Assembly (NCBI GenBank): GCA_043818055.1
Contig: JBDRGF010000109.1
Location: 1-14,027 of the forward strand
Length of the DNA: 14,027 nucleotides
Source of the DNA: Pseudomonadota bacterium
GTDB lineage: Bacteria; UBA10199; 2-02-FULL-44-16; JBDRGF01
Direction of reading: 5' to 3'
The position numbers were made by a program, and so were the translations under genes. Under the pieces are notes generated by a model. The model did no database searches. It was not told the origin of the DNA and worked only from the letters and a program-made list of their open reading frames with translations. Below are positions 138-14,027 of the stretch, piece after piece (the stretch's first letter is position 1; every line of letters starts with the position of its first letter).

Positions 138-166
138 TTGACTATTATTTCACGATAACCTACTAT
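138..166 (+). promoter_or_regulatory. sigma70-type promoter of the AbiE-like/RT operon
   Basis: -35 TTGACT (138-143), 17-nt spacer, -10 TACTAT (161-166), directly upstream of the ORF at 177. Confidence 0.75.
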
Positions 167-201
167 TTTCACGAGCGTGAAAATTATGCAAAATCGTGAA
201 A
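148..201. promoter_or_regulatory. nested palindromic operator with four TTTCACG/CGTGAAA half-sites, putative autorepression site of the AbiEi-like protein
   Basis: Inner inverted repeat ATTTTCACG(165-173)-AG-CGTGAAAAT(176-184). Outer inverted repeat TTTCACGAT(148-156)/ATCGTGAAA(193-201) about the same centre. AbiEi antitoxins are known to autorepress through promoter inverted repeats. Confidence 0.7.
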
Positions 202-869
202 ATTACAAAAAAAACACCTTAAAAAGCCCTTTAAATCCAAATTTGGTGGCTCAGTCGTTAAAAACGCCTGAGCGAGTCTGGATGGCCATTTTGCTCATCA
301 ATCAACACCAGGAGACCCCAACTATTGAGGAATTTTCAAAACTCTCCAATTTGAGTTTGGGATTCATCTCAAAATTTGCCAACATTTTGAGGGATGCTGG
401 TTTTTTGGCAAAGGGGCGAACTCTCAATCTTTTGGAGCCGGGACAACTCCTGGATATTGTCCGAGACACCTATCTTTTTGAAGCTAATCAGATTATTTCT
501 TATTATGCAGAAGGATCAGCTGAAGAAATTCTTAAAAATTTTAAAACAGCAAATAAGTCCTACGCACTGACTCGAATGTGCGGTGCTTCTTTCATCGCAC
601 CATTTGTTCGATATCAATTGATTGATTTTTATATCCCCAACCAAAGCAATCTTGCTTACTGGAAAGAAAAATTAAAGCTCATAGATGTTGAGCTCTCTGG
701 CAATGTCAATCTTGTCATTCCTCAAAATCCAAGAATTTTTAATCAGGTACAAAAGTTCAAAGGGTACAACATCGTCAACAATATCCAACTCTACCTGGAT
801 CTCTATAAATATCCAGCTCGTGGCCGGGAACAAGCGGAACATTTACGAGAACAGGTTATAAAGATATGA
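177..869 (+). CDS. type IV toxin-antitoxin AbiEi-like antitoxin / winged-HTH transcriptional regulator (true start may be ATG 186)
   Basis: N-terminal wHTH-like segment (TIEEFSKLSNLSLGFISKFANILRDAGFL) and C-terminal QLYLDL...RGREQAEHL motif typical of AbiEi_2-like proteins. ATGA overlap with a downstream nucleotidyltransferase. Confidence 0.75.
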   Translation: MKIMQNRENYKKNTLKSPLNPNLVAQSLKTPERVWMAILLINQHQETPTIEEFSKLSNLSLGFISKFANILRDAGFLAKGRTLNLLEPGQLLDIVRDTYLFEANQIISYYAEGSAEEILKNFKTANKSYALTRMCGASFIAPFVRYQLIDFYIPNQSNLAYWKEKLKLIDVELSGNVNLVIPQNPRIFNQVQKFKGYNIVNNIQLYLDLYKYPARGREQAEHLREQVIKI

Positions 870-1732
870 ACGATCGATTCATCACTCACTTTGAAAACAA
901 TGAAGCCAACAGATCGCAATCTGTCCTGCTAGAACTTATGACTATTCTAGGAAAATATCGCAATAATCTCTATTTAGTTGGGGGATGGGCTCCATATTTT
1001 TTACTCAAAATGTTTCAGAAGCCTGAAAACAATTTTCAACACATAGGTTCCATTGATATCGATATTGCAATCGACTGTTCGAACATCTTGCAAAACCAAT
1101 ACGCAAGCATCGTCGAGCTCATCAAAAATAAGGGTTACACCGAAAGGAAGAGTCGAATTGGTACAATCATTCCCTTTTCATTTGAACGAGTGATCGATGG
1201 TTTAGCCGTTGCCATTGATTTTCTTGCTGGCGAATATGGTGGAACACCTAAGAAACAACGACACCAGCGGGTAGATGATGAATTGCTAGCACGAAAAGCA
1301 AGAGGGGCGGATATTTTGCCAGAGCATCATATTGATTTTCGTCTTGATGGGTTTTTGCCAGATGGAAGCAGGCAATCATGTGACATAAAGATGGCCAACA
1401 TCGTAAGCATGCTTGCCATGAAGGGAATTACCATTTCCGAGCGCTATAAAGAAAAGGATGCCTATGACATTTATGCATTGTTAGCGCATTATAAGAATGG
1501 ACCAAATTCATGTATTGAAGAAATTGGGCTTTATCTTGAAAACAAGTTGATAGAAGAGGGAATACAAAGCATCTGCGAAAAATTTGCATTTGAAAATTCA
1601 GTTGGCCCTACATGGGCGGCAAAGTTCATTGAACCTACTAACCCAAAGGCTGCAAGGGTTTTGCAGGCTGATATCTACAGACGAGTTTATCCATTCATTG
1701 AAGAGATAAAGAGCTATGAAAAACGATACTAA
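866..1732 (+). CDS. AbiEii-like (Pol-beta superfamily) nucleotidyltransferase, putative type IV TA toxin
   Basis: LVGGWA...SIDIDI (GG + DxD) N-terminal motif, a later IDFL acidic strand and a C-terminal KEKDAYDIY motif. Coupled to the AbiEi-like gene. Confidence 0.75.
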   Translation: MNDRFITHFENNEANRSQSVLLELMTILGKYRNNLYLVGGWAPYFLLKMFQKPENNFQHIGSIDIDIAIDCSNILQNQYASIVELIKNKGYTERKSRIGTIIPFSFERVIDGLAVAIDFLAGEYGGTPKKQRHQRVDDELLARKARGADILPEHHIDFRLDGFLPDGSRQSCDIKMANIVSMLAMKGITISERYKEKDAYDIYALLAHYKNGPNSCIEEIGLYLENKLIEEGIQSICEKFAFENSVGPTWAAKFIEPTNPKAARVLQADIYRRVYPFIEEIKSYEKRY

Positions 1733-3251
1733 AAAAAACATATTGTCTTTAAATTCAAAAGAAGCACGGGAATTTTTCCTAAAGGAAGAAAAATACTTCA
1801 CTACTAAATTGCCACCATATTTCACCTTTTCAGAGCTTCTCAAAAATCTCTCAGATAAACTTGATGGTGGTAATCTCTCCGATTATTATAAAAAGATCTC
1901 CAATGAGAATAAAAAAGAGAAATCGTTGAAGCCTGAAGATTTTGAGAAAGTTAACTATTTGTTGATAAATAATAAAAATGGGAAATATGCCTGGAGACCT
2001 TTGGAGCTTATTCATCCTGCGTTATATGTATCATTAGTTCATAATATTACATCCAATGGAAATTGGAAGATTATTCAAAAGAGGTTTAATGGAAACAGTT
2101 GCGTAGAATGTATGAGTATTCCTGTTGTATCTGAAGGTGAAAAATATGATGAGTCAGAGCAGAATATACATTTTTTGGGAACGGTTGAGAAAAAATCCAT
2201 AGAGCTTGCTTTGGATTATGAATATATATTTCACACGGATATTTTACACTGTTATGGATCAATTTATACTCATTCAATAGCATGGGCGCTTCATACTAAG
2301 CCGATCGCAAAAAAGAATAGATCAGATAAACTGCTCGGAAATGTTATTGATCGGCATTTACAAGGTATGTCATATGGTCAAACAAATGGTATCCCGCAAG
2401 GAAGTGTTTTAATGGATCTTGTTGCTGAGATAGTACTCAGTTATGCTGATGAACTGCTCAGTGATAAGTTATCCAAATTTGAGGAAAAGGATTATAAGAT
2501 TTTAAGGTATAGAGATGACTATCGAGTATTTGTGAATAACCCGCAGGTTGGTGAAGAAATTATAAAAGGCCTCAGTGAAGTCCTTGCCGATCTTGGCATG
2601 CAACTCAATGCGCAGAAGACATCTTATTCAAAGGATATTATCAATAATTCAATTAAACCGGATAAGTTTTATTCAATAGTAAACAGTGAAATATCTGAAG
2701 ATATACAGCGTGAGTTGTTCAATATAAAAGATTTGTCTATGCGCTTTCCTAACTGCAAAACTTTATACAAGAGGCTTAAGAATATTAGCGAAAAAATTCT
2801 AACAGATGAATCGCCTAAATATGATCTTCAAATGCTTATTAGCATGGTAGTGGATTTAGCATTAAATAATTCCAATACTTACCCAGCTGCCTCAGCTATT
2901 TTAGGCAAATTGATTAAATTTCTGCCAGAAAAAGAGCGTGAAGATGGCATATTAAAAATAAAAAATAAATTCGAAAGTATTCCAAATACAGAATATATGG
3001 ATTTGTGGTTACAGCGTATTTCTATTTTATATAAGTTTAAAAATATCGAATATGAAGGAGAACTTTGCAAGCTTGCTAATGAAGAGCCATCCATAACAAT
3101 ATGGAAATCTGAATGGTTGAACAAAAAAATAACAGGAATAATTTCTTCAACAAGTATCATTGATAAAGAAAAGATTAAAGATATAATTGAGAAACAAAAT
3201 GCAAATATTGATGATGAAATTCCAGATTATGGACTAGATGAATATTGTTAA
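1716..3251 (+). CDS. Abi-P2-family (AbiK/Abi-P2 clade) abortive-infection reverse transcriptase
   Basis: RT motifs TDI..CYGSIYTHS, QTNGIPQGSVLMD, RYRDDY (YRDD at 2508-2519) and LNAQKT. N-terminal LPPYF and GKYAWRPLELIHP plus helical C-terminal PNTEYMDLWLQR closely resemble Abi-P2 RTs as recalled. No maturase, RNase H or Cas1 domain is seen. Confidence 0.85.
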   Translation: MKNDTKKNILSLNSKEAREFFLKEEKYFTTKLPPYFTFSELLKNLSDKLDGGNLSDYYKKISNENKKEKSLKPEDFEKVNYLLINNKNGKYAWRPLELIHPALYVSLVHNITSNGNWKIIQKRFNGNSCVECMSIPVVSEGEKYDESEQNIHFLGTVEKKSIELALDYEYIFHTDILHCYGSIYTHSIAWALHTKPIAKKNRSDKLLGNVIDRHLQGMSYGQTNGIPQGSVLMDLVAEIVLSYADELLSDKLSKFEEKDYKILRYRDDYRVFVNNPQVGEEIIKGLSEVLADLGMQLNAQKTSYSKDIINNSIKPDKFYSIVNSEISEDIQRELFNIKDLSMRFPNCKTLYKRLKNISEKILTDESPKYDLQMLISMVVDLALNNSNTYPAASAILGKLIKFLPEKEREDGILKIKNKFESIPNTEYMDLWLQRISILYKFKNIEYEGELCKLANEEPSITIWKSEWLNKKITGIISSTSIIDKEKIKDIIEKQNANIDDEIPDYGLDEYC

Positions 3252-3269
3252 TAAAGTTTTTAAATCATA

Positions 3270-3330
3270 GCACCCCCGCAAAGCGTTGGGCTTGACGGCC
3301 GTGAGCCACCCGGAGAGTGGCCAGTTTGAC
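3270..3330. other. GC-rich structured intergenic patch between convergent genes
   Basis: Hairpins CGC-AAA-GCG, GGCTTGACGGCCGTGAGCC (3289-3307) and GCCAC-CCGGAGA-GTGGC (3305-3321) within AT-rich DNA. Confidence 0.45.
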
Positions 3331-3348: not shown

Positions 3349-3405
3349 TTAAAGAAAATCAGAGATATCATACTCTTCACTTGCACAAACTTCTTTTGAT
3401 TCCAT
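3349..3405 (-). pseudogene. possible truncated 5' stub of the HEPN-type partner of the MNT gene (MESKEVCASEEYDISDFL*)
   Basis: The ATG at 3405 overlaps the 3' end of the MNT gene, with a G-rich tract just upstream. This is the usual position of a coupled HEPN toxin, but the frame stops after 18 codons. Confidence 0.3.
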
Positions 3406-3970
3406 TCAATACCCCCATTATAAACGTAAAGCTCTCCCTGGATCCATCCAGAAAGAGCGGCGTATAATCCATCTCCTTAAAAAACCACTCCGGCGCATTA
3501 TCCATATTGATGAGATCAATTCCTCTGGGTAGATCCTCGGCCATCTCTTCAACTATTCCTCTAAGCTTTAAATATTCCTTGCCGGCCAATGGATTTTCAC
3601 CACACGTTATCGCCAGATCCCAATCTGCAAAGGATTTTGCCTTACCTTTGGCCCTCGATCCAATTAGAATAACCGCAAGTTTCTTATCCGCTTTGGCTAA
3701 TTTAGCGATGATGTGAAGCACCTCATCGATTTGAGGAATCGAAATTGTAGTCTCGGATATCGGCATCATCAACTCAACAGGATCAGCATTCAATGCCGAA
3801 CATATGTTATTAAAGGCACTGGCATAGACATCCTTGCCATCAAGATATTGCTGAATTGTGCTCCGATGAATGGAGCTCTTTCTGGAAAAATCGAGCAGGC
3901 TCTCATAGCCCAAACTCATAAGCCCTTTCCAAAACACCTTTTTGTTCATGACATACTTCACAGTTACCAA
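3377..3970 (-). CDS. HTH-fused minimal nucleotidyltransferase (MNT, MntA-like antitoxin); start may be GTG 3961
   Basis: GSRAKGKAKSFADWDLAI fits the GS-x10-DxD MNT motif, with a later IDLI strand. The N-terminal ~65 aa look like an XRE/Cro HTH (LLDFSRKSSIHRSTIQQYLDG). Confidence 0.8.
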   Translation of the reverse strand: MVTVKYVMNKKVFWKGLMSLGYESLLDFSRKSSIHRSTIQQYLDGKDVYASAFNNICSALNADPVELMMPISETTISIPQIDEVLHIIAKLAKADKKLAVILIGSRAKGKAKSFADWDLAITCGENPLAGKEYLKLRGIVEEMAEDLPRGIDLINMDNAPEWFFKEMDYTPLFLDGSRESFTFIMGVLNGIKRSLCK

Positions 3971-4094: not shown

Positions 4095-4160
4095 CCACAT
4101 GCTACATGCCACATGCGCTTTTTGCCTTTTGACCACATGCCACATGCGCCTTTGCCTTTT
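4095..4160 (-). repeat. CATGTRG heptamer element, tandemly duplicated, overlapping the purF 3' end
   Basis: CCACATG-CTACATG-CCACATG at 4095-4115. The ~27-nt unit ACATGCCACATGCGC..TTTGCCTTTT occurs at 4104-4130 and 4135-4160. Confidence 0.8.
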
Positions 4161-5636: not shown

Positions 5637-7832
5637 TTAAAAAATCTTCTCATAAGCCGTTGACCAGCCTTCGTATAGCTCTGAAACCGATACGTTGATA
5701 TGATTTCCTATTGTGAGCTTGTCTGAGCCTACCCTTCCGATCACCTGAGCGGGGACACCTTCGGTCTGGGCGATCTCCATTAGCATCGCAAGATCCTCAG
5801 GGGGAGTGGAAACTATAAGCGTCGAGGCTGTCTCGCCGAAAAGGAGCTGATCGACTCTCTTTACACCATTGATGACGACAGCAGATCCGTATTTGGACTC
5901 TGAGAGAAGCGAGCACTCGGCCAGCGCTACAGCCAACCCGCCTTCGGAAAGATCGTGGGCCGACCTGATCAGTCCGCGCGAGATTGCAGTTCTGCAAACA
6001 TGCTGAGTGAGCCTCTCACGCTCCAAATCCAAAACGGGGGCAAGACCTTTTACGACTCCATGAATCCTCTCGAGATATTCCGTCGCGCCAAGCTCGGGTT
6101 CGAAATAGCCGAGGAGAATGATCGCGTCATCCTGCGCCTTCCATCCTTGAGAGCATGCCTTGTCTACATCATCCACAACACCGACCATAGTTATGACAGG
6201 TGTCGGATATATCGCCTTGCCAAAGGTTTCATTATAGAAGCTGACATTACCGCCTGTGACAGGCGTGTTGAAAATTTTGCATGCGTCTGACATTCCTGCC
6301 GTGACCTGTTGGAACTGCCACATGACGCCTGGATCTTCGGGACTCCCAAAATTCAAACAGTTGCTGATCGCAAGCGGCCTTCCACCGACGGCGGAAATAT
6401 TTCTCGCTGCCTCGGCTACCGCGTGAGCGCCTCCGTTATACGGATCCAGAAAACAATATTTTGGGTTCGCATCACACGATAAGACTATCCCCCTCTTGCT
6501 CCCTTTGAGCCTTATCACTGCGGCGTCTCCTCCGGGGTGCAAAACCGTGTTAGTCATTACCATATGATCGTATTGTTCCCAGACCCATGATTTACGAGCA
6601 AGGTTGGGATGAAAGATCAACCTCTTCAACGTTTGCGTCATATCCTTTGGAACAGGAACGTCGCTTGAATTTAGCTGCTGTTTCTCTTCCTGATAATCAG
6701 GCATCGCAACAGCTCTTTTATATACAGGCGCTTCGCAGACGATGGGAGAGACCGGAATCTCGAGCACCTTTTCCCCATTATGAATCGCCTCTATCTTTCT
6801 ATTCCCCACAACCTCGCCGATCATCGCTGCATCGAGATCCCACTTTTTGAAAATATCTATCACCTTCTCTTCAAATCCTTGTTTGGCTACGATCAGCATC
6901 CTCTCCTGCGATTCGGAGAGCATGATCTCGTATGGCGTCATGTTGAGTTCTCTCTGAGGAACGAGATTGAGATCAATCTTCATCCCCACCTCTCCGCGGT
7001 CTGCCATCTCAAATGTGGAACAGGTAAGCCCGGCGGCCCCCATATCCTGAATCCCGATTATGTAATCCTTTTTCATCAACTCGAGGCAGGCTTCCAGAAG
7101 GCGTTTTTCAGTGAAGGGGTCTCCAACCTGCACGGTCGGCCTCTTCTCCTCTGTCGCCTCATTGAACTCCTGAGATGCCATAGTAGCGCCGTGAATTCCA
7201 TCGCGACCAGTCTTCGAACCGACATATATCACAGGATTGCCAACGCCCGATGCCTTTCCTGTGAAGGGCATCCTCCCTTTCAAAATTCCAAGCGTAAAGG
7301 CGTTGACCAGAATATTTCCGTTATAACAGCTATTGAACTGCACCTCACCACCGACCGTTGGAATTCCCATCGTGTTGCCGTAGTCACCGACGCCACTAAC
7401 AACCCCTTTGAGCAAATATGGTGTCTTCGGATGATCCACATCTCCAAACCTCAAAGAATTCATATTTGCAATAGGTCTCGCTCCCATCGTGAAGATATCA
7501 CGCAGAATTCCCCCGACTCCAGTTGCAGCACCCTGATAAGGTTCAATGAATGATGGATGATTGTGGCTCTCAATTTTGAAGATGATTATGTTGCCTTCGC
7601 CAATATCGATAGCGCCGGCATTCTCTCCCGGCCCCTGAACAACGTGTTCACCTTTAGTCGGAAGATTTTTCAGATAGATCTTGGAACTCTTGTAGGAACA
7701 ATGCTCCGACCACATCACTGAAAAGACTCCAAGCTCAGTGATGTTGGGCTCCCTCCCCAGAATTCTCTTTATCCGTTCATATTCATCGGGAGTCAGTCCG
7801 TGATCTTTAACTATTTGATCTGTTATTTTCAT
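5637..7832 (-). CDS. purL: phosphoribosylformylglycinamidine synthase subunit PurL (small type)
   Basis: [41 protein letters not shown] and HDLSEGG motifs; 731 aa. Confidence 0.98.
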
Positions 7833-7835
7833 AAT

Positions 7836-7855
7836 AAAAACCCGTCGCTGGTCGC
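7836..7855 (+). repeat. CGCTGGT-family element end immediately upstream of the purL start
   Basis: AAAAACCCGTCGCTGGT (7836-7852) matches the reverse complement of 5619-5635 at 16 of 17 positions. Confidence 0.7.
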
Positions 7856-7882
7856 ATGCACACTATTAAGCGAGTTCTTACG

Positions 7883-7952
7883 CCCCTCCTTTATAAGGAG
7901 GGGATGGGGGAGGTAAAAACACCCCACCTAACCTCCCCTTATAAAGGGGAGG
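7883..7952. repeat. REP-like palindrome doublet in inverted orientation (REPIN/BIME-like) between purQ and purL
   Basis: CCCCTCCTT-TAT-AAGGAGGGG (7883-7903) and CCTCCCCTT-ATA-AAGGGGAGG (7932-7952), each with a C-rich leader. A third copy lies at 11551-11581. Confidence 0.85.
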
Positions 7953-7964
7953 AATATACAGTGA

Positions 7965-8654
7965 CTAGCGACTGCCCTTAATTATCGAGTCAAAAATTTT
8001 GCGGCCATCTTCGCCACAAAAGGATTTTTCACAGCATCGCTCTGGATGCGGCATCATTCCACAGATATTTCCCTCTTTGTTTACAACTCCAGCGATCGAG
8101 CTCACTGACCCGTTTGGATTTGTTGAATTCGTCACATTCCCTGACTCGCTTGAGTATCTGAGCAGGACCTGCCCATTATCCTCCAGATCCTTCACATCTC
8201 TATGATTGATATAAAAGCTCCCGCACGCGTGAGCGATCGGCATCCTCAAAATTTCCTTTTCTTTGCATGAGGATGAAAAGGGAGAACTGGAATTCTCGAT
8301 TCTTAGATGAATATTTTTGCAGACGAATTTCAGGTTGTCGTTTTTAATGAGCGTACCGGGCAAAAGACCGCACTCCTGAAGTATCTGAAAGCCGTTACAT
8401 ATTCCCATCACAAGGCCGCCTGAATTTGCGAACTTTTTGACGGAGCTCATTATATTCGACTTTGCCGCAATAGCGCCGGCGCGCAGATAATCGCCATATG
8501 AAAAGCCTCCCGGCAAAATTATACAGTCGCACGATTCGAGATCTAAAGATTTGTGCCAGAGATAAACCACATCCTGCCCAAGCACATTTTTCAGCGCATA
8601 GTGACAGTCATGATCGCAGTTGCTTCCTGGAAATACTACTATTCCAAATTTCAC
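7965..8654 (-). CDS. purQ: phosphoribosylformylglycinamidine synthase glutaminase subunit PurQ
   Basis: FPGSNCD, GGFSYGDYLRAG, GICNGFQ (catalytic Cys) and MPHPER. Confidence 0.97.
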   Translation of the reverse strand: MKFGIVVFPGSNCDHDCHYALKNVLGQDVVYLWHKSLDLESCDCIILPGGFSYGDYLRAGAIAAKSNIMSSVKKFANSGGLVMGICNGFQILQECGLLPGTLIKNDNLKFVCKNIHLRIENSSSPFSSSCKEKEILRMPIAHACGSFYINHRDVKDLEDNGQVLLRYSSESGNVTNSTNPNGSVSSIAGVVNKEGNICGMMPHPERCCEKSFCGEDGRKIFDSIIKGSR

Positions 8655-8890
8655 GATAGCTCCACTTTATAGGTTTCTATGACGGAATTGGCCAAAAGCT
8701 TTTGACACATCTCCTCCACACGTTTCTTGTTTCCCTCAACATCATCCGATCCCAACTCCATCTCAACAAATTTCCCGATGCGCACACCTTTGACACCTTC
8801 GTATCCGAGTTTAGAGAGCGTATCCTCAACAGCCTGCCCCTGTGGATCGTGCACGCCCTTTTTTAATGTGATATAAACTTTTGCCAACAT
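8651..8890 (-). CDS. purS: phosphoribosylformylglycinamidine synthase subunit PurS
   Basis: 79 aa with DPQG, VRIGK and LLAN motifs, lying between purC and purQ. Confidence 0.96.
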   Translation of the reverse strand: MLAKVYITLKKGVHDPQGQAVEDTLSKLGYEGVKGVRIGKFVEMELGSDDVEGNKKRVEEMCQKLLANSVIETYKVELS

Positions 8891-8899
8891 TTTTCCTCC

Positions 8900-9610
8900 T
8901 CAAATTGATGCGGAAATTAATTCATGCACTCTATTGTACGCTTCCTCCACTCCTCCCAAGTCCCGACGAAACCTGTCCTTGTCGAGCTTTTCACCAGTCG
9001 CTAAATCCCATAGCCTGCAACCATCCGGCGTGATCTCGTCCGCAAGGACGAGTTTCCCTTTGTGGCGCCCGTATTCGAGTTTATAATCTATGAGCTCGAT
9101 GCCGATGCCCTTGAAAAAATTTATCAGCCAATCGTTGATAACAAATGAAGTCTTTTTTATAGAGGCGATTTCATCTTCCGTTGCAAATTCAAAAGCACGA
9201 ATATGATCTTCGTTGATCATGGGATCACCAAGCTCATCGCTCTTGTAGTACCATTCAAGTATAGTTCTCTTTAGCGCTGTTCCCTCTTTCAAACCCAGCC
9301 TCTTGGCCAGGGATCCGGCGACTTTGTTTCTGAGGACGACCTCCACAGGAACGATTTCACTCCTCTTCACAAGAAGTTCGTCATCAGCGTTTAGTTTTAC
9401 AAAGTGAGTCGAAATGCCAGCCTTTTCAAGCTTCTCATATATCAACGCCGTAATCTGACAGTTGACTTTACCCTTGTTTTCGATCGTCCCTTTTTTCAGA
9501 CCGTTGAATGCAGTAGCATCATCTTTGAAGTGGATGACGAGCAGATTCGGATCATCTGTCGAGTAAACGATCTTAGCCTTTCCCTCGTACAATTTTTCAT
9601 TTTTCTTCAT
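8900..9610 (-). CDS. purC: SAICAR synthetase
   Basis: LYEGKAK, FKDDATAF, DYKLEYG, LADEITPD and LDKDRFR motifs. Confidence 0.98.
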   Translation of the reverse strand: MKKNEKLYEGKAKIVYSTDDPNLLVIHFKDDATAFNGLKKGTIENKGKVNCQITALIYEKLEKAGISTHFVKLNADDELLVKRSEIVPVEVVLRNKVAGSLAKRLGLKEGTALKRTILEWYYKSDELGDPMINEDHIRAFEFATEDEIASIKKTSFVINDWLINFFKGIGIELIDYKLEYGRHKGKLVLADEITPDGCRLWDLATGEKLDKDRFRRDLGGVEEAYNRVHELISASI

Positions 9611-11237: not shown

Positions 11238-11265
11238 TTGACTTAAAAAATCATAATGATAGCCT
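11238..11265 (+). promoter_or_regulatory. putative promoter of the protease gene
   Basis: TTGACT (11238-11243), 16-nt spacer, TGnTAGCCT. A similar module lies at 11016-11043. Confidence 0.4.
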
Positions 11266-11288
11266 TTTCCCAATCAGGGAGGCTGTCG

Positions 11289-14027
11289 ATGAGGGGTAGT
11301 GCCTCTAAATATCGTTTGAATACAAAGGCGGGCTCAAAACCTGCCTTTTTGTTTTTTAACTACATGCTACATGCCACATGCTACATGCTTCTTCTTATCG
11401 CTTGCGGGTCTCAAGGTAATAACGACATTCAAAAGGATGATGCTGTTCCTATAAACAAAGAAATCACACCTGAAGATATGATCATGTCAGATCGATATCT
11501 GGGCGAGCTTGTTGTACATTTTAGGGATGATTTGGTTGTTAGATTATCACCCCCACCTGACCTCCCCCGTCAAGGGGGAGGGGCAGAGCGGAATAATCAT
11601 TTAGAGGTGCGGAATTTCTATTTTCAAAGCCTTGCTGATGATCTGAACAAAATCCTCGAAGAACACCAGGTTGCGGTGAGAAGATATCTAACAATGGGTC
11701 AGGATAAGTATGACACTTTCAAGCGCGATCTCGAAGAACTAAACTCCGAAGAACTGCCCGATCTCAATTCTATCTATTATTTCAGGGCAGAACCTAAAAA
11801 AGCGCTTGTGTTATATGATAAGTTAAAAAATATCTATGGCGTGGAATATATCTATCCGCATCTGCAAAAAGTTTTGACGGCTACAACAACCCCCGATCTG
11901 TCATTACAGCAGGGATATCTAACAGCAAACGGCGGTATAAATGCCGAATACGCCTGGAATCAGGGAATCATGGGAAAAGGTGTCCATGTGTATGATCAGG
12001 ATAGCGCGTTTAATTTCGACCACGAGGATTTGCAGCTTGATTATACTGTTTATGATGAAAAAAATAATCCAAACGGTTCACTTGTTGGAGCGAATACATC
12101 ACTGGCAGCGCATCTTCCTCCTGAGAAGCAACCTTTTGTAAGCACAGGCGTTCCTCTTTATCTCGCCATTGCACACGGGACGTCTGTTGCAGGTATCATA
12201 AACGCTTCACATAATAATGGAGGGGGAAATTTTGGAGTAAAGGGCATTGCACCAGATACAAAATTGTTGGCCGGGTTTGCACCGATATATAGAGACGATA
12301 AAAATATATTTCCAATTAGCAAAAAAGATACTGAGGATGACAATGGATTTATGGGTTCAGTTTTTGTCATCGAATCGGCTGTCACGGGAAAAGATGGATG
12401 TCAAAAAACCAGTGGAGGAATCGATGATCCATGCTACGGCAAAGGTCAGCTTCCATGCGAAGTCGTACCAGATGAGATGAAATACTATCAAACGCTTTCA
12501 GCTATGGGGATTACGGTTGTCGAAGGTGCTGGAAACTCTGGACTCGATATCGGCGATCCTGATCAATACACAGGCAAATGGAGTGTGTGGGTCAATCCAA
12601 CGACACAGGACAGCGGCGCTATTATGGTAGGTGCCAGCGATGGCGCTAACATGCAAAAGGCCGCTTTCAGCAATTACAGCCCAAGGGTGGATGCCTATTC
12701 ATGGGGGAGCGGCATAGTCACGACGTCATACCCATACGGCGACGCTGCGACATCTCCCTTTTACTGGAAAGGTGCCGGCGGCCCGCCATCCCAAGACCCT
12801 GTGAACGACAAGCACAAATTTTACACAAACCGTTTTGGGGGGACATCCGGTGCGACGGCTATTGTCGGTGGTGCTGTGACACTTGCTCAAAGCAGATTCA
12901 TGCAATTAGCCGGCAACAATCGCATGAGATACATCATGCCAAAGAAGATGAGAGAGCTCGTTCGATCAAGCGGCGATAGTCAGAAGGATACGACAGGCAA
13001 GAACATCGGCGTCCAGCCGAAGATGGACAAGCTCATCAAGGCCGTCGATAACTACTGGCAGACGATCTCTGCAAAATATCCGGCATTGAAGCAAAAGTCC
13101 CCCAACATCAATCGTATGACGAAGCAGGAGATAATCTCAATGCGATCAGATGGTGTTGGATTAACCTGCATCAAATACGACCCTGACGGCAGCTCAAGCG
13201 ACCCACTCTGTTCAGACGATCTCCTGTGGCCACGAGCCATCCAGATGAATGTCGATATGGATATCGACGGCGATGGTTTGATGGATCTCGTAAGCTGGAA
13301 ACGTGGGGAGTTTAAGGTGGACATCAGTTCACAAGGAGCAGATTCAGCATGGTGCTCCGATCTCAAGGGGGTGAGAGAAGCCGACGGCTATTGTGACAAA
13401 TTTCCTGAGAAATACGGTTCGTGGGATTTGACAATCAGCTACAACGATATCAACAGCAAGTGGGTCTTGCCATATGTGAAGGACATGGACGCAGATCATA
13501 GATCAGACCTCATGCTCTACGACAAAGAACATGGACGTTGGTACATCGAATATATGAATGTCGATTATATCAACGGGAGTGAGAATCGTATCGCAACATG
13601 GGATAAAGAACTTCAATACAACTGGAAGGACGAACTGAACATTGACCCATGGAAGAGCAAATATTCGAGACCTGCGGTCAGCGATTTGGCAAGCTCTTAT
13701 AAAAATAGCAAAGGGATCTATTTCAGCGATGGGTGGGCAGACATCTCAATCTTGTGTTCTGACGGCTACTGGCGGGTTGACCTTGGAGGGCCAAATGGCC
13801 CTGATGGCATATGGGATATCGAAGTTAAATATCTCACAGATGAACAATTGAAAGCAGCCCCGGGCTGGGCATATCAGACTTATGTGAGTTCGATATTAGG
13901 TGGTCACACAGAAATTGGGAAAAAAGAATATGATCATGAAACTTTCTATGTGAAAATTCCGGATACGATAAATGGAGCAGGAAAAGTTTTAGTCTGGGCT
14001 GGGGGGGTAGGATATGTTGAGGCTTTC
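11289..14027 (+). CDS. subtilisin-like S8 serine protease, predicted lipoprotein with C-terminal FG-GAP/VCBS-like repeats; runs off the window (at least 913 codons)
   Basis: Hand translation is open from ATG 11289 (SD GGGAGG 11277-11282) to the edge. Lipobox LIAC (Cys39, 11403). Triad VYDQD (11994), HGTSVAG (12174) and GTSGAT (12846). Oxyanion GAGNS, FSNY. DIDGDGLMDL and DMDADHRSDL repeats. Confidence 0.92.
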   Translation, partial: MRGSASKYRLNTKAGSKPAFLFFNYMLHATCYMLLLIACGSQGNNDIQKDDAVPINKEITPEDMIMSDRYLGELVVHFRDDLVVRLSPPPDLPRQGGGAERNNHLEVRNFYFQSLADDLNKILEEHQVAVRRYLTMGQDKYDTFKRDLEELNSEELPDLNSIYYFRAEPKKALVLYDKLKNIYGVEYIYPHLQKVLTATTTPDLSLQQGYLTANGGINAEYAWNQGIMGKGVHVYDQDSAFNFDHEDLQLDYTVYDEKNNPNGSLVGANTSLAAHLPPEKQPFVSTGVPLYLAIAHGTSVAGIINASHNNGGGNFGVKGIAPDTKLLAGFAPIYRDDKNIFPISKKDTEDDNGFMGSVFVIESAVTGKDGCQKTSGGIDDPCYGKGQLPCEVVPDEMKYYQTLSAMGITVVEGAGNSGLDIGDPDQYTGKWSVWVNPTTQDSGAIMVGASDGANMQKAAFSNYSPRVDAYSWGSGIVTTSYPYGDAATSPFYWKGAGGPPSQDPVNDKHKFYTNRFGGTSGATAIVGGAVTLAQSRFMQLAGNNRMRYIMPKKMRELVRSSGDSQKDTTGKNIGVQPKMDKLIKAVDNYWQTISAKYPALKQKSPNINRMTKQEIISMRSDGVGLTCIKYDPDGSSSDPLCSDDLLWPRAIQMNVDMDIDGDGLMDLVSWKRGEFKVDISSQGADSAWCSDLKGVREADGYCDKFPEKYGSWDLTISYNDINSKWVLPYVKDMDADHRSDLMLYDKEHGRWYIEYMNVDYINGSENRIATWDKELQYNWKDELNIDPWKSKYSRPAVSDLASSYKNSKGIYFSDGWADISILCSDGYWRVDLGGPNGPDGIWDIEVKYLTDEQLKAAPGWAYQTYVSSILGGHTEIGKKEYDHETFYVKIPDTINGAGKVLVWAGGVGYVEAF
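11324..11357 (+). terminator. intrinsic-terminator-like hairpin inside the 5' end of the protease ORF
   Basis: AAAGGCGGG-CTCAAAA-CCTGCCTTT followed by TTGTTTTTT. Confidence 0.6.
11360..11387 (-). repeat. four tandem CYACATG heptamers inside the protease signal-peptide region
   Basis: CTACATG-CTACATG-CCACATG-CTACATG, translated as YMLHATCYM. Confidence 0.85.
11551..11581 (+). repeat. REP-like palindrome inserted in frame in the protease pro-region
   Basis: CCCCACCTGA-CCTCCCCC-GTCAA-GGGGGAGG resembles 7922-7952 and encodes PPDLPRQGG. Confidence 0.75.

Follow-up and report, generated by a model that had tools for sequence, protein, structure and literature searches.

The window analysed here is a 14,027-nucleotide (nt) stretch of DNA that makes up an entire contig (C109; JBDRGF010000109.1) of a Pseudomonadota bacterium genome (G000; GCA_043818055.1; 2.93 Mb in 166 contigs). 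Near its left end lie three plus-strand open reading frames (ORFs) of 230 (177-869, counted from GTG), 288 and 511 amino acids (aa), encoding an AbiEi-like regulator (gene 1), an AbiEii-like nucleotidyltransferase (NTase; gene 2) and a reverse transcriptase (RT) of the Abi-P2 family (gene 3; Table 1). Genes 1 and 2 overlap by 4 nt (ATGA), and gene 2 overlaps the RT gene by 17 nt. A sequence-only reading of this DNA had described an overlapping array of these three families behind one promoter and proposed a new three-component system in which the AbiEi-like repressor gates both effectors. The array, the promoter and the family assignments were confirmed, the last by Pfam, PADLOC, phmmer and fold matches. 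The gene 2/RT junction is no assembly join, since it was spanned with zero differences by contigs in two runs belonging to separate studies (X1, 1482-1774; X2, 1679-2101); one of the two runs may be the source sample.

Table 1. Features of the three-gene array and its right flank, by position in the window.
Feature	Position	Strand	Basis
Sigma70-type promoter, TTGACT-17-TACTAT	138..166 (-35 138-143; -10 161-166)	+	Consensus scan, 9/12
Predicted operator, four half-sites	147..202		Spacing conserved upstream of homologous pairs; probable site of the gene 1 product
Gene 1, AbiEi-like antitoxin/autorepressor	186..869	+	Pfam AbiEi_2, homologues, model; longest ORF from GTG177
Gene 2, AbiEii/MenT-like DUF1814 nucleotidyltransferase	866..1732	+	Pfam AbiEii, fold matches, motifs
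Gene 3, Abi-P2 family RT-like polymerase, full length	1716..3251	+	PADLOC AbiP2, phmmer to 7r08, conserved residues
18-codon remnant at the position of a HepT/HEPN toxin gene	3349..3405	-	Translation; start compared with homologous loci
Flanking helix-turn-helix (HTH) + MntA-like nucleotidyltransferase antitoxin gene, outside the operon	3377..3970	-	NCBIfam MntA; Pfam Polbeta, HTH_26

By their profiles and predicted structures, genes 1 and 2 are a divergent AbiE-like toxin–antitoxin (TA) pair of the AbiEi_2/AbiEii(MenT)-like kind. Gene 1 matched Pfam AbiEi_2 at 17.6 bits, under the cut-off of 21, and the same profile was matched by 39 of 53 aligned homologues. Its model (pLDDT 93) showed a winged helix at about residues 17-85 and an NTase-like C-terminal domain at 110-227, as in AbiEi, and aligned with AbiEi of Streptococcus agalactiae (6y8q) at Z 7.8 and a root-mean-square deviation (rmsd) of 3.4 over 105 residues, a result tied with many unrelated rows. 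Gene 1 is a short form, lacking the N-terminal part of about 130 aa found in distant homologues. Gene 2 scored 25.2 bits against Pfam AbiEii, over the cut-off of 22.5, and only weakly against PADLOC AbiEii (E 0.012). The best fold match of its model (pLDDT 90) was MenT1 (Z 13.5, rmsd 3.3, 177 aligned), followed by other DUF1814-like NTases including MenT4 (Z 10.7) and MenT3 (Z 10.6). A database search for gene 2 homologues gave 517 matches, whereas the gene 2 profile matched no PDB sequence and no viral contig. All four motifs that Dy et al. 2014 (PMC3985639) set out for DUF1814 were recognized as G39-G40 (I), S62-x-D64-x-D66 (II), K186..R193 (III) and K197-D198-x-x-D201 (IV), with residues kept in 63-64 of 64 aligned sequences. 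Both length and motifs were normal, with no sign of an added domain.

The pair resembled AbiE of S. agalactiae and Lactococcus lactis in the 4-nt overlap of a winged-HTH regulator gene with a DUF1814 NTase gene, as in S. agalactiae (PMC3985639), in the inverted repeats at the promoter and in NTase motifs I-IV. It differed in belonging to a distant subfamily (AbiEi_2), in its operator (four short half-sites where AbiE has two repeats of 11 bp), in a motif I-II spacing of 23 rather than 15, and in the third gene behind it. The MenAT1, MenAT3 and MenAT4 systems of M. tuberculosis, whose MenT toxins are tRNA nucleotidyltransferases of type VII by autophosphorylation, provided the best folds for gene 2, at 11-18% sequence identity. 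Toxicity, tRNA target and phosphorylation of gene 2 would follow by analogy. The invariant S62 lies two residues ahead of the first catalytic Asp, a phosphoacceptor-like position. The reported phosphoacceptors are T39 in MenT1 (PMC11375011) and T65 in AbiEii (2026 preprint, bioRxiv 10.64898/2026.01.19.700257), and S62/D64 of gene 2 would correspond to T39/D41 and T65/D67, respectively. The same preprint moves AbiE to type VII, which challenges the "type IV" label of the sequence-only reading, while its assignment to an AbiE-type pair stood. From the S62 motif we infer that type VII neutralisation may apply to this pair also.

Among gene 2 homologues, some carried C-terminal extensions of about 250 aa, of at least three unrelated kinds (L049:1949-3577, L057:5983-7590, L095:5992-7602, P0241, P0242), with no Pfam match in those scanned and no RT similarity. 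At one locus (L024:5422-6473), a second AbiEi/AbiEii-type pair, canonical-looking by its N-termini and with a truncated toxin, was separated by 450 nt from the homologues of genes 1 and 2.

Gene 3 is, by sequence comparison, a full-length Abi-P2 RT. It scored 595 bits against the PADLOC AbiP2 profile (positions 3-473 of 489), the next family reaching 182 bits, and a phmmer comparison with the sequence of the Abi-P2 structure 7r08 gave E 8e-74 over residues 7-498. The catalytic residues, D175 and the YRDD motif at 265-268, were kept in 87 of 87 loci. The YRDD motif and tyrosines 57, 58 and 81 were present as the sequence-only reading had stated, but its proposal of these tyrosines as priming residues is probably wrong. 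Figiel et al. 2022 (PMC9508834) reported that Abi-P2 forms trimers and by itself carries out untemplated DNA synthesis in vitro, an activity lost in Y61F and not in Y46F. Y61 of 7r08 aligned to Y35 of the window RT (residues counted by hand along the alignment), and Y35 was kept in 87 of 87 independent loci, versus 9 of 87 for Y57, 28 of 87 for Y58 and 68 of 87 for Y81. Because of this alignment and conservation, Y35 is likely to be the priming tyrosine, a prediction drawn from sequence.

Like Abi-P2 of E. coli P2-like prophages (PDB 7R08; Class 1 UG/Abi RT), the window RT has an RT and a helical domain, the YRDD motif and an LPxY loop; in Abi-P2 this loop holds the priming residue, Tyr61. It differs in its divergent sequence, in its place behind an AbiE-like pair and in its site, which looks chromosomal rather than like a P2 prophage, with a run of presumed purine-synthesis (pur) genes, named by their sequences, nearby. 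The closest database relatives, in a search with about 5,600 RT hits at E<=1e-30, were 59-60% identical. On a FastTree tree, which left out one split RT (L147) and was used for the sister pair only, the sister of the window RT was a 59% identical homologue (L033; support 98). In Mestre et al. 2022 (PMC9226505), AbiP2 is classed as a highly mobile, stand-alone RT that is enriched in defence islands.

Whether the pair and the RT travel together was examined with the best 80 of 245 gene 2 relatives (genome_contigs), the best 80 of at least 567 RT relatives (metagenomes), 17 viral RT loci and wider regions of genomes of the phylum. Removal of six duplicate loci (L036-L041) and clustering at 95% left 85 pair loci and 89 RT loci. 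Gene 1 lay beside gene 2 in all 78 loci with at least 300 nt upstream. An RT beside the pair was found in 0 of 85 pair loci (77 with at least 500 nt and 65 with at least 1600 nt downstream; best E 0.61), and gene 1 or gene 2 beside the RT in 0 of 89 RT loci (78 with at least 300 nt and 57 with at least 1700 nt upstream; best E 0.55 and 0.65). At the thresholds used, gene 2 matched in 13 and the RT in 3 of 93 phylum genomes, and both only in the source genome, whose second gene 1/gene 2 pair (contig C36) stood without an RT. Pfam searches of 56 upstream neighbours of RTs identified no AbiEi or AbiEii, and Methylase_S in 14 of 56. PADLOC profiles likewise found no AbiEi or AbiEii at E<=1e-5 among representative proteins of 150-420 aa encoded no more than 3 kb from RTs (150 of 155 scanned), a weak scan in that gene 2 itself scores only E 0.012; outside it were an RT fragment, three proteins already named by Pfam and one further ORF (L207:8614-9783). 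Among 8000 candidates that were scored, two gene 2 homologues were longer than usual, and neither carried an RT domain; as a test for fusion this is weak. Both modules had distant relatives on plasmids (113 and 88 records), whose neighbourhoods stand outside the linkage counts. The neighbourhood survey of RT homologues that the sequence-only reading had looked to for AbiEi/AbiEii partners thus showed none linked, and within the sample the linkage was unique to the source genome, the outcome which that reading had itself set against its proposal. In the literature passages searched, no AbiE and Abi-P2 combination was described as a named system; AbiEii is listed among the genes occasionally near RTs in general (PMC8934634).

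The overlapping reading frames are not exceptional for the family. With distances measured from a conserved RT residue, a same-strand upstream ORF ended within 60 nt of the RT in 35 of 78 loci, and in 19 of these it was hsdS; a few of the 35 are short and may be chance ORFs. Overall hsdS was present in 29 of 89 RT loci, and relatives directly behind it were spread over several branches of the tree (L127, L129, L133, L135, L141, L146, L150, L153, L155 and others). Other tight upstream partners were a TPR-protease, an Eco57I-type enzyme and a PD-(D/E)XK nuclease. The sister RT (L033), the nearest relative with known context, was the last gene of an hsdR-fic-hsdM-hsdS operon. The literature passages searched held no printed statement of this habit. 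Since Abi-P2 relatives routinely sit tight behind other genes, the overlap is weak evidence of partnership. Type I restriction-modification (R-M) operons carry other passenger defence genes, among them PrrC, which has a functional guarding role. The placement of Abi-P2 relatives behind hsdS (19/78, including L033) is PrrC-like; the host operon in the window is instead a TA pair, with no evidence of PrrC-type guarding.

The slot behind gene 2 was similarly varied, with 13 of 85 loci holding a gene within 30 nt, including R-M methyltransferases and a metallophosphoesterase. Elsewhere in the source genome (contig C139, ca. 7410-8929), a tRNA-like gene (tRNA-Ser by eye) precedes a gene 1 homologue (70% identical) of which the final 63 codons are left. 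Where gene 2 would follow, there is an unrelated gene encoding 391 aa, whose start overlaps the stop of the gene 1 fragment by 4 nt. Judged from its sequence, this is another cargo swap at a stop/start junction.

The promoter found by consensus scan is conserved upstream of homologous pairs, with TTGAC at the same distance from the operator in 11 of the 11 close homologous promoters shown. The operator consists of two direct half-sites (147-154, 166-173) and two inverted ones (176-183, 195-202), and their offsets from the -35 element (+11, +30, +38/39, +57/58) were kept in 8 of the 11, the rest being degenerate. In a wider set, 53 of 77 promoters scored above the best of 8 shuffles, and an operator score of at least 29/32 was reached in 13 of 77 and in none of the shuffle maxima; scoring used a fixed search window, so that some real operators were missed (e.g., L023, L017). 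Half-site sequence varied between subgroups while the layout remained constant, which fits the site of a cognate autorepressor, and the four half-sites are likely the binding site of the gene 1 product. S. agalactiae AbiEi was reported to repress its own promoter through inverted repeats (PMC3985639). Because GTG177 falls within the third half-site and the closest homologue (L023) begins at the ATG equivalent to position 186, gene 1 probably starts at ATG186. Only one promoter-like site lay in the last part of gene 2 (1464-1492; 9/12), within the count expected by chance (19 sites found versus 15.4 +/- 3.7). The three genes are likely to share transcription from the autorepressed promoter. This part of the repressor-gated proposal stood; its central part, a conserved three-component system, was not supported.

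A genome-wide count of operator hexamers, considered as a control, was dropped in favour of shuffles and the conservation of spacing, as the genome is full of an unrelated heptamer repeat. The heptamers are intergenic, fall into two families (CATGTAG/CATGTGG-like and CGTGAAG/CTTCACG-like), often form inverted tandem arrays and occur at 94-121 and 4095-4155 of the window and in many contigs of the source genome. The second gene 1/gene 2 pair of this genome (C36 4144-6035; L017) is of the long form and 33-35% identical; by eye it showed the same four-half-site layout with another half-site sequence, which suggests that the paralogues each have their own operator.

At the right edge, the HTH-MntA-like gene matched NCBIfam MntA at 40 bits, under the cut-off of 60, as well as Pfam Polbeta and HTH_26, and its HTH-fused family had matches in 34 of 93 phylum genomes. 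In relatives (L214-L225) it was usually followed by an overlapping HepT-like gene of about 120 aa that matched NTase_sub_bind/HepT-like profiles. The 18-codon remnant shares its start position and a MESK-like start with those loci; BLASTP of the remnant against an intact homologue gave no match. The remnant is probably a scar left by rearrangement where the cassette ends on the right. GC content at third codon positions (GC3) was 0.28 in the RT (overall GC 31.7%) versus about 0.38 in genes 1 and 2, and one contig of a third run (X3) diverged from the window upstream of 3253, just past the RT stop; this single contig is a hint only. Together, the GC3 gap, the HepT-like remnant and the X3 divergence hint at recent rearrangement. 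Also behind the RT stop lies a GC-rich intergenic stretch (3262-3330) that occurs nowhere else in the genome and contains short inverted repeats resembling hairpins. At the far end of the window, a large subtilase (Peptidase_S8) ORF with a lipoprotein-like N-terminus (11256-14027) runs off the contig.

Our findings indicated, with a probability of about 85%, that the array consists of two independent, known defence modules that share one transcript through a one-off join and is not a new three-part system, as each module occurred without the other in all other loci sampled. The arrangement of an AbiE-like pair with Abi-P2 is new and was seen once; both kinds of component are known. A mobile, stand-alone RT gene has probably landed in the variable cargo slot behind the pair, borrowing its autorepressed promoter. 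By analogy with characterised relatives, gene 1 would bind the four half-sites and repress the operon, and would probably also neutralise gene 2, perhaps via autophosphorylation at S62 as with AbiEi and MenA. Released gene 2 would add nucleotides to tRNA 3' ends and stall translation, and the RT would oligomerise and, with its own Tyr35 as the primer, make untemplated single-stranded DNA (ssDNA), working against phages without a partner gene. As no gap precedes the RT gene, its translation is likely to be from the transcript that gene 1 represses, and loss of gene 1 would raise the RT level as a side effect.

Several observations weigh against a one-off join of two defence modules. Sampling was partial and many contigs were short, an equally close RT (P0123, 60%) contributes no context, and the 93 genomes searched include none of the same genus or family as the source genome, so that a small lineage-specific three-gene unit may exist. 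The sequence scan found no terminator-like site at the gene 2/RT junction, this junction is present in two studies, and all three genes are intact, so that the arrangement may be under selection. S. agalactiae AbiE was also reported to give E. coli no protection from 32 coliphages (bioRxiv 10.64898/2026.01.19.700257), which leaves the defence role of the pair uncertain.

The main rival is a recent join retained by selection for its regulation, in which the AbiEi-like repressor gives the RT infection-linked expression and its loss frees both effectors together, with no physical or catalytic link between them. The strong, conserved operator over the promoter, the missing intergenic space, the lone promoter-like site late in gene 2 lying within the chance count, and the R-M methyltransferases and other defence-type genes tight behind close gene 2 homologues (L027, L028, L022) are all consistent with such co-option. 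It is nevertheless unlikely, as there is a single instance, the slots behind the pair mostly hold unrelated or housekeeping genes, and Abi-P2 works behind many other promoters. In a true three-component system, RT activity or its ssDNA product would trigger the NTase toxin, or the pair would protect the RT from phage inhibitors. In favour of such a system are the overlapping frames and the one apparent operon, and retrons are a precedent for RT-gated effectors. We consider it very improbable, given that no second instance appeared in 85 pair and 89 RT loci, no longer gene 2 homologue was fused to an RT (the weak test above), gene 2 has the usual length and motifs and no new domain was seen in it, and Abi-P2 alone polymerises DNA in vitro (PMC9508834). 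The fragmented assembly of 166 contigs and the step down in GC at the gene 2/RT junction would be expected of an assembly chimera, but the identical bridging contigs of two studies largely refute it and leave only a negligible chance of one.

A bolder extension, which we regard as unlikely, is that infection releases the autorepressed promoter with its four half-sites, which would make it a switch for any defence gene docking behind it. The array would then be a new two-layer system, in which repressor loss frees both the tRNA-targeting toxin and Abi-P2 and protects better than either alone. If true, this would show how multi-gene defence systems begin, with promoter capture preceding a biochemical link, and would provide a handle on what turns Abi-P2 on. 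As it stands, the join of two independent modules represents ordinary defence-gene shuffling, and it adds one more Abi-P2 member and the description of a divergent subfamily of AbiE, whose predicted operator is clear. Stop/start overlaps beside Abi-P2 genes do not imply partnership, as this family routinely docks behind other genes.

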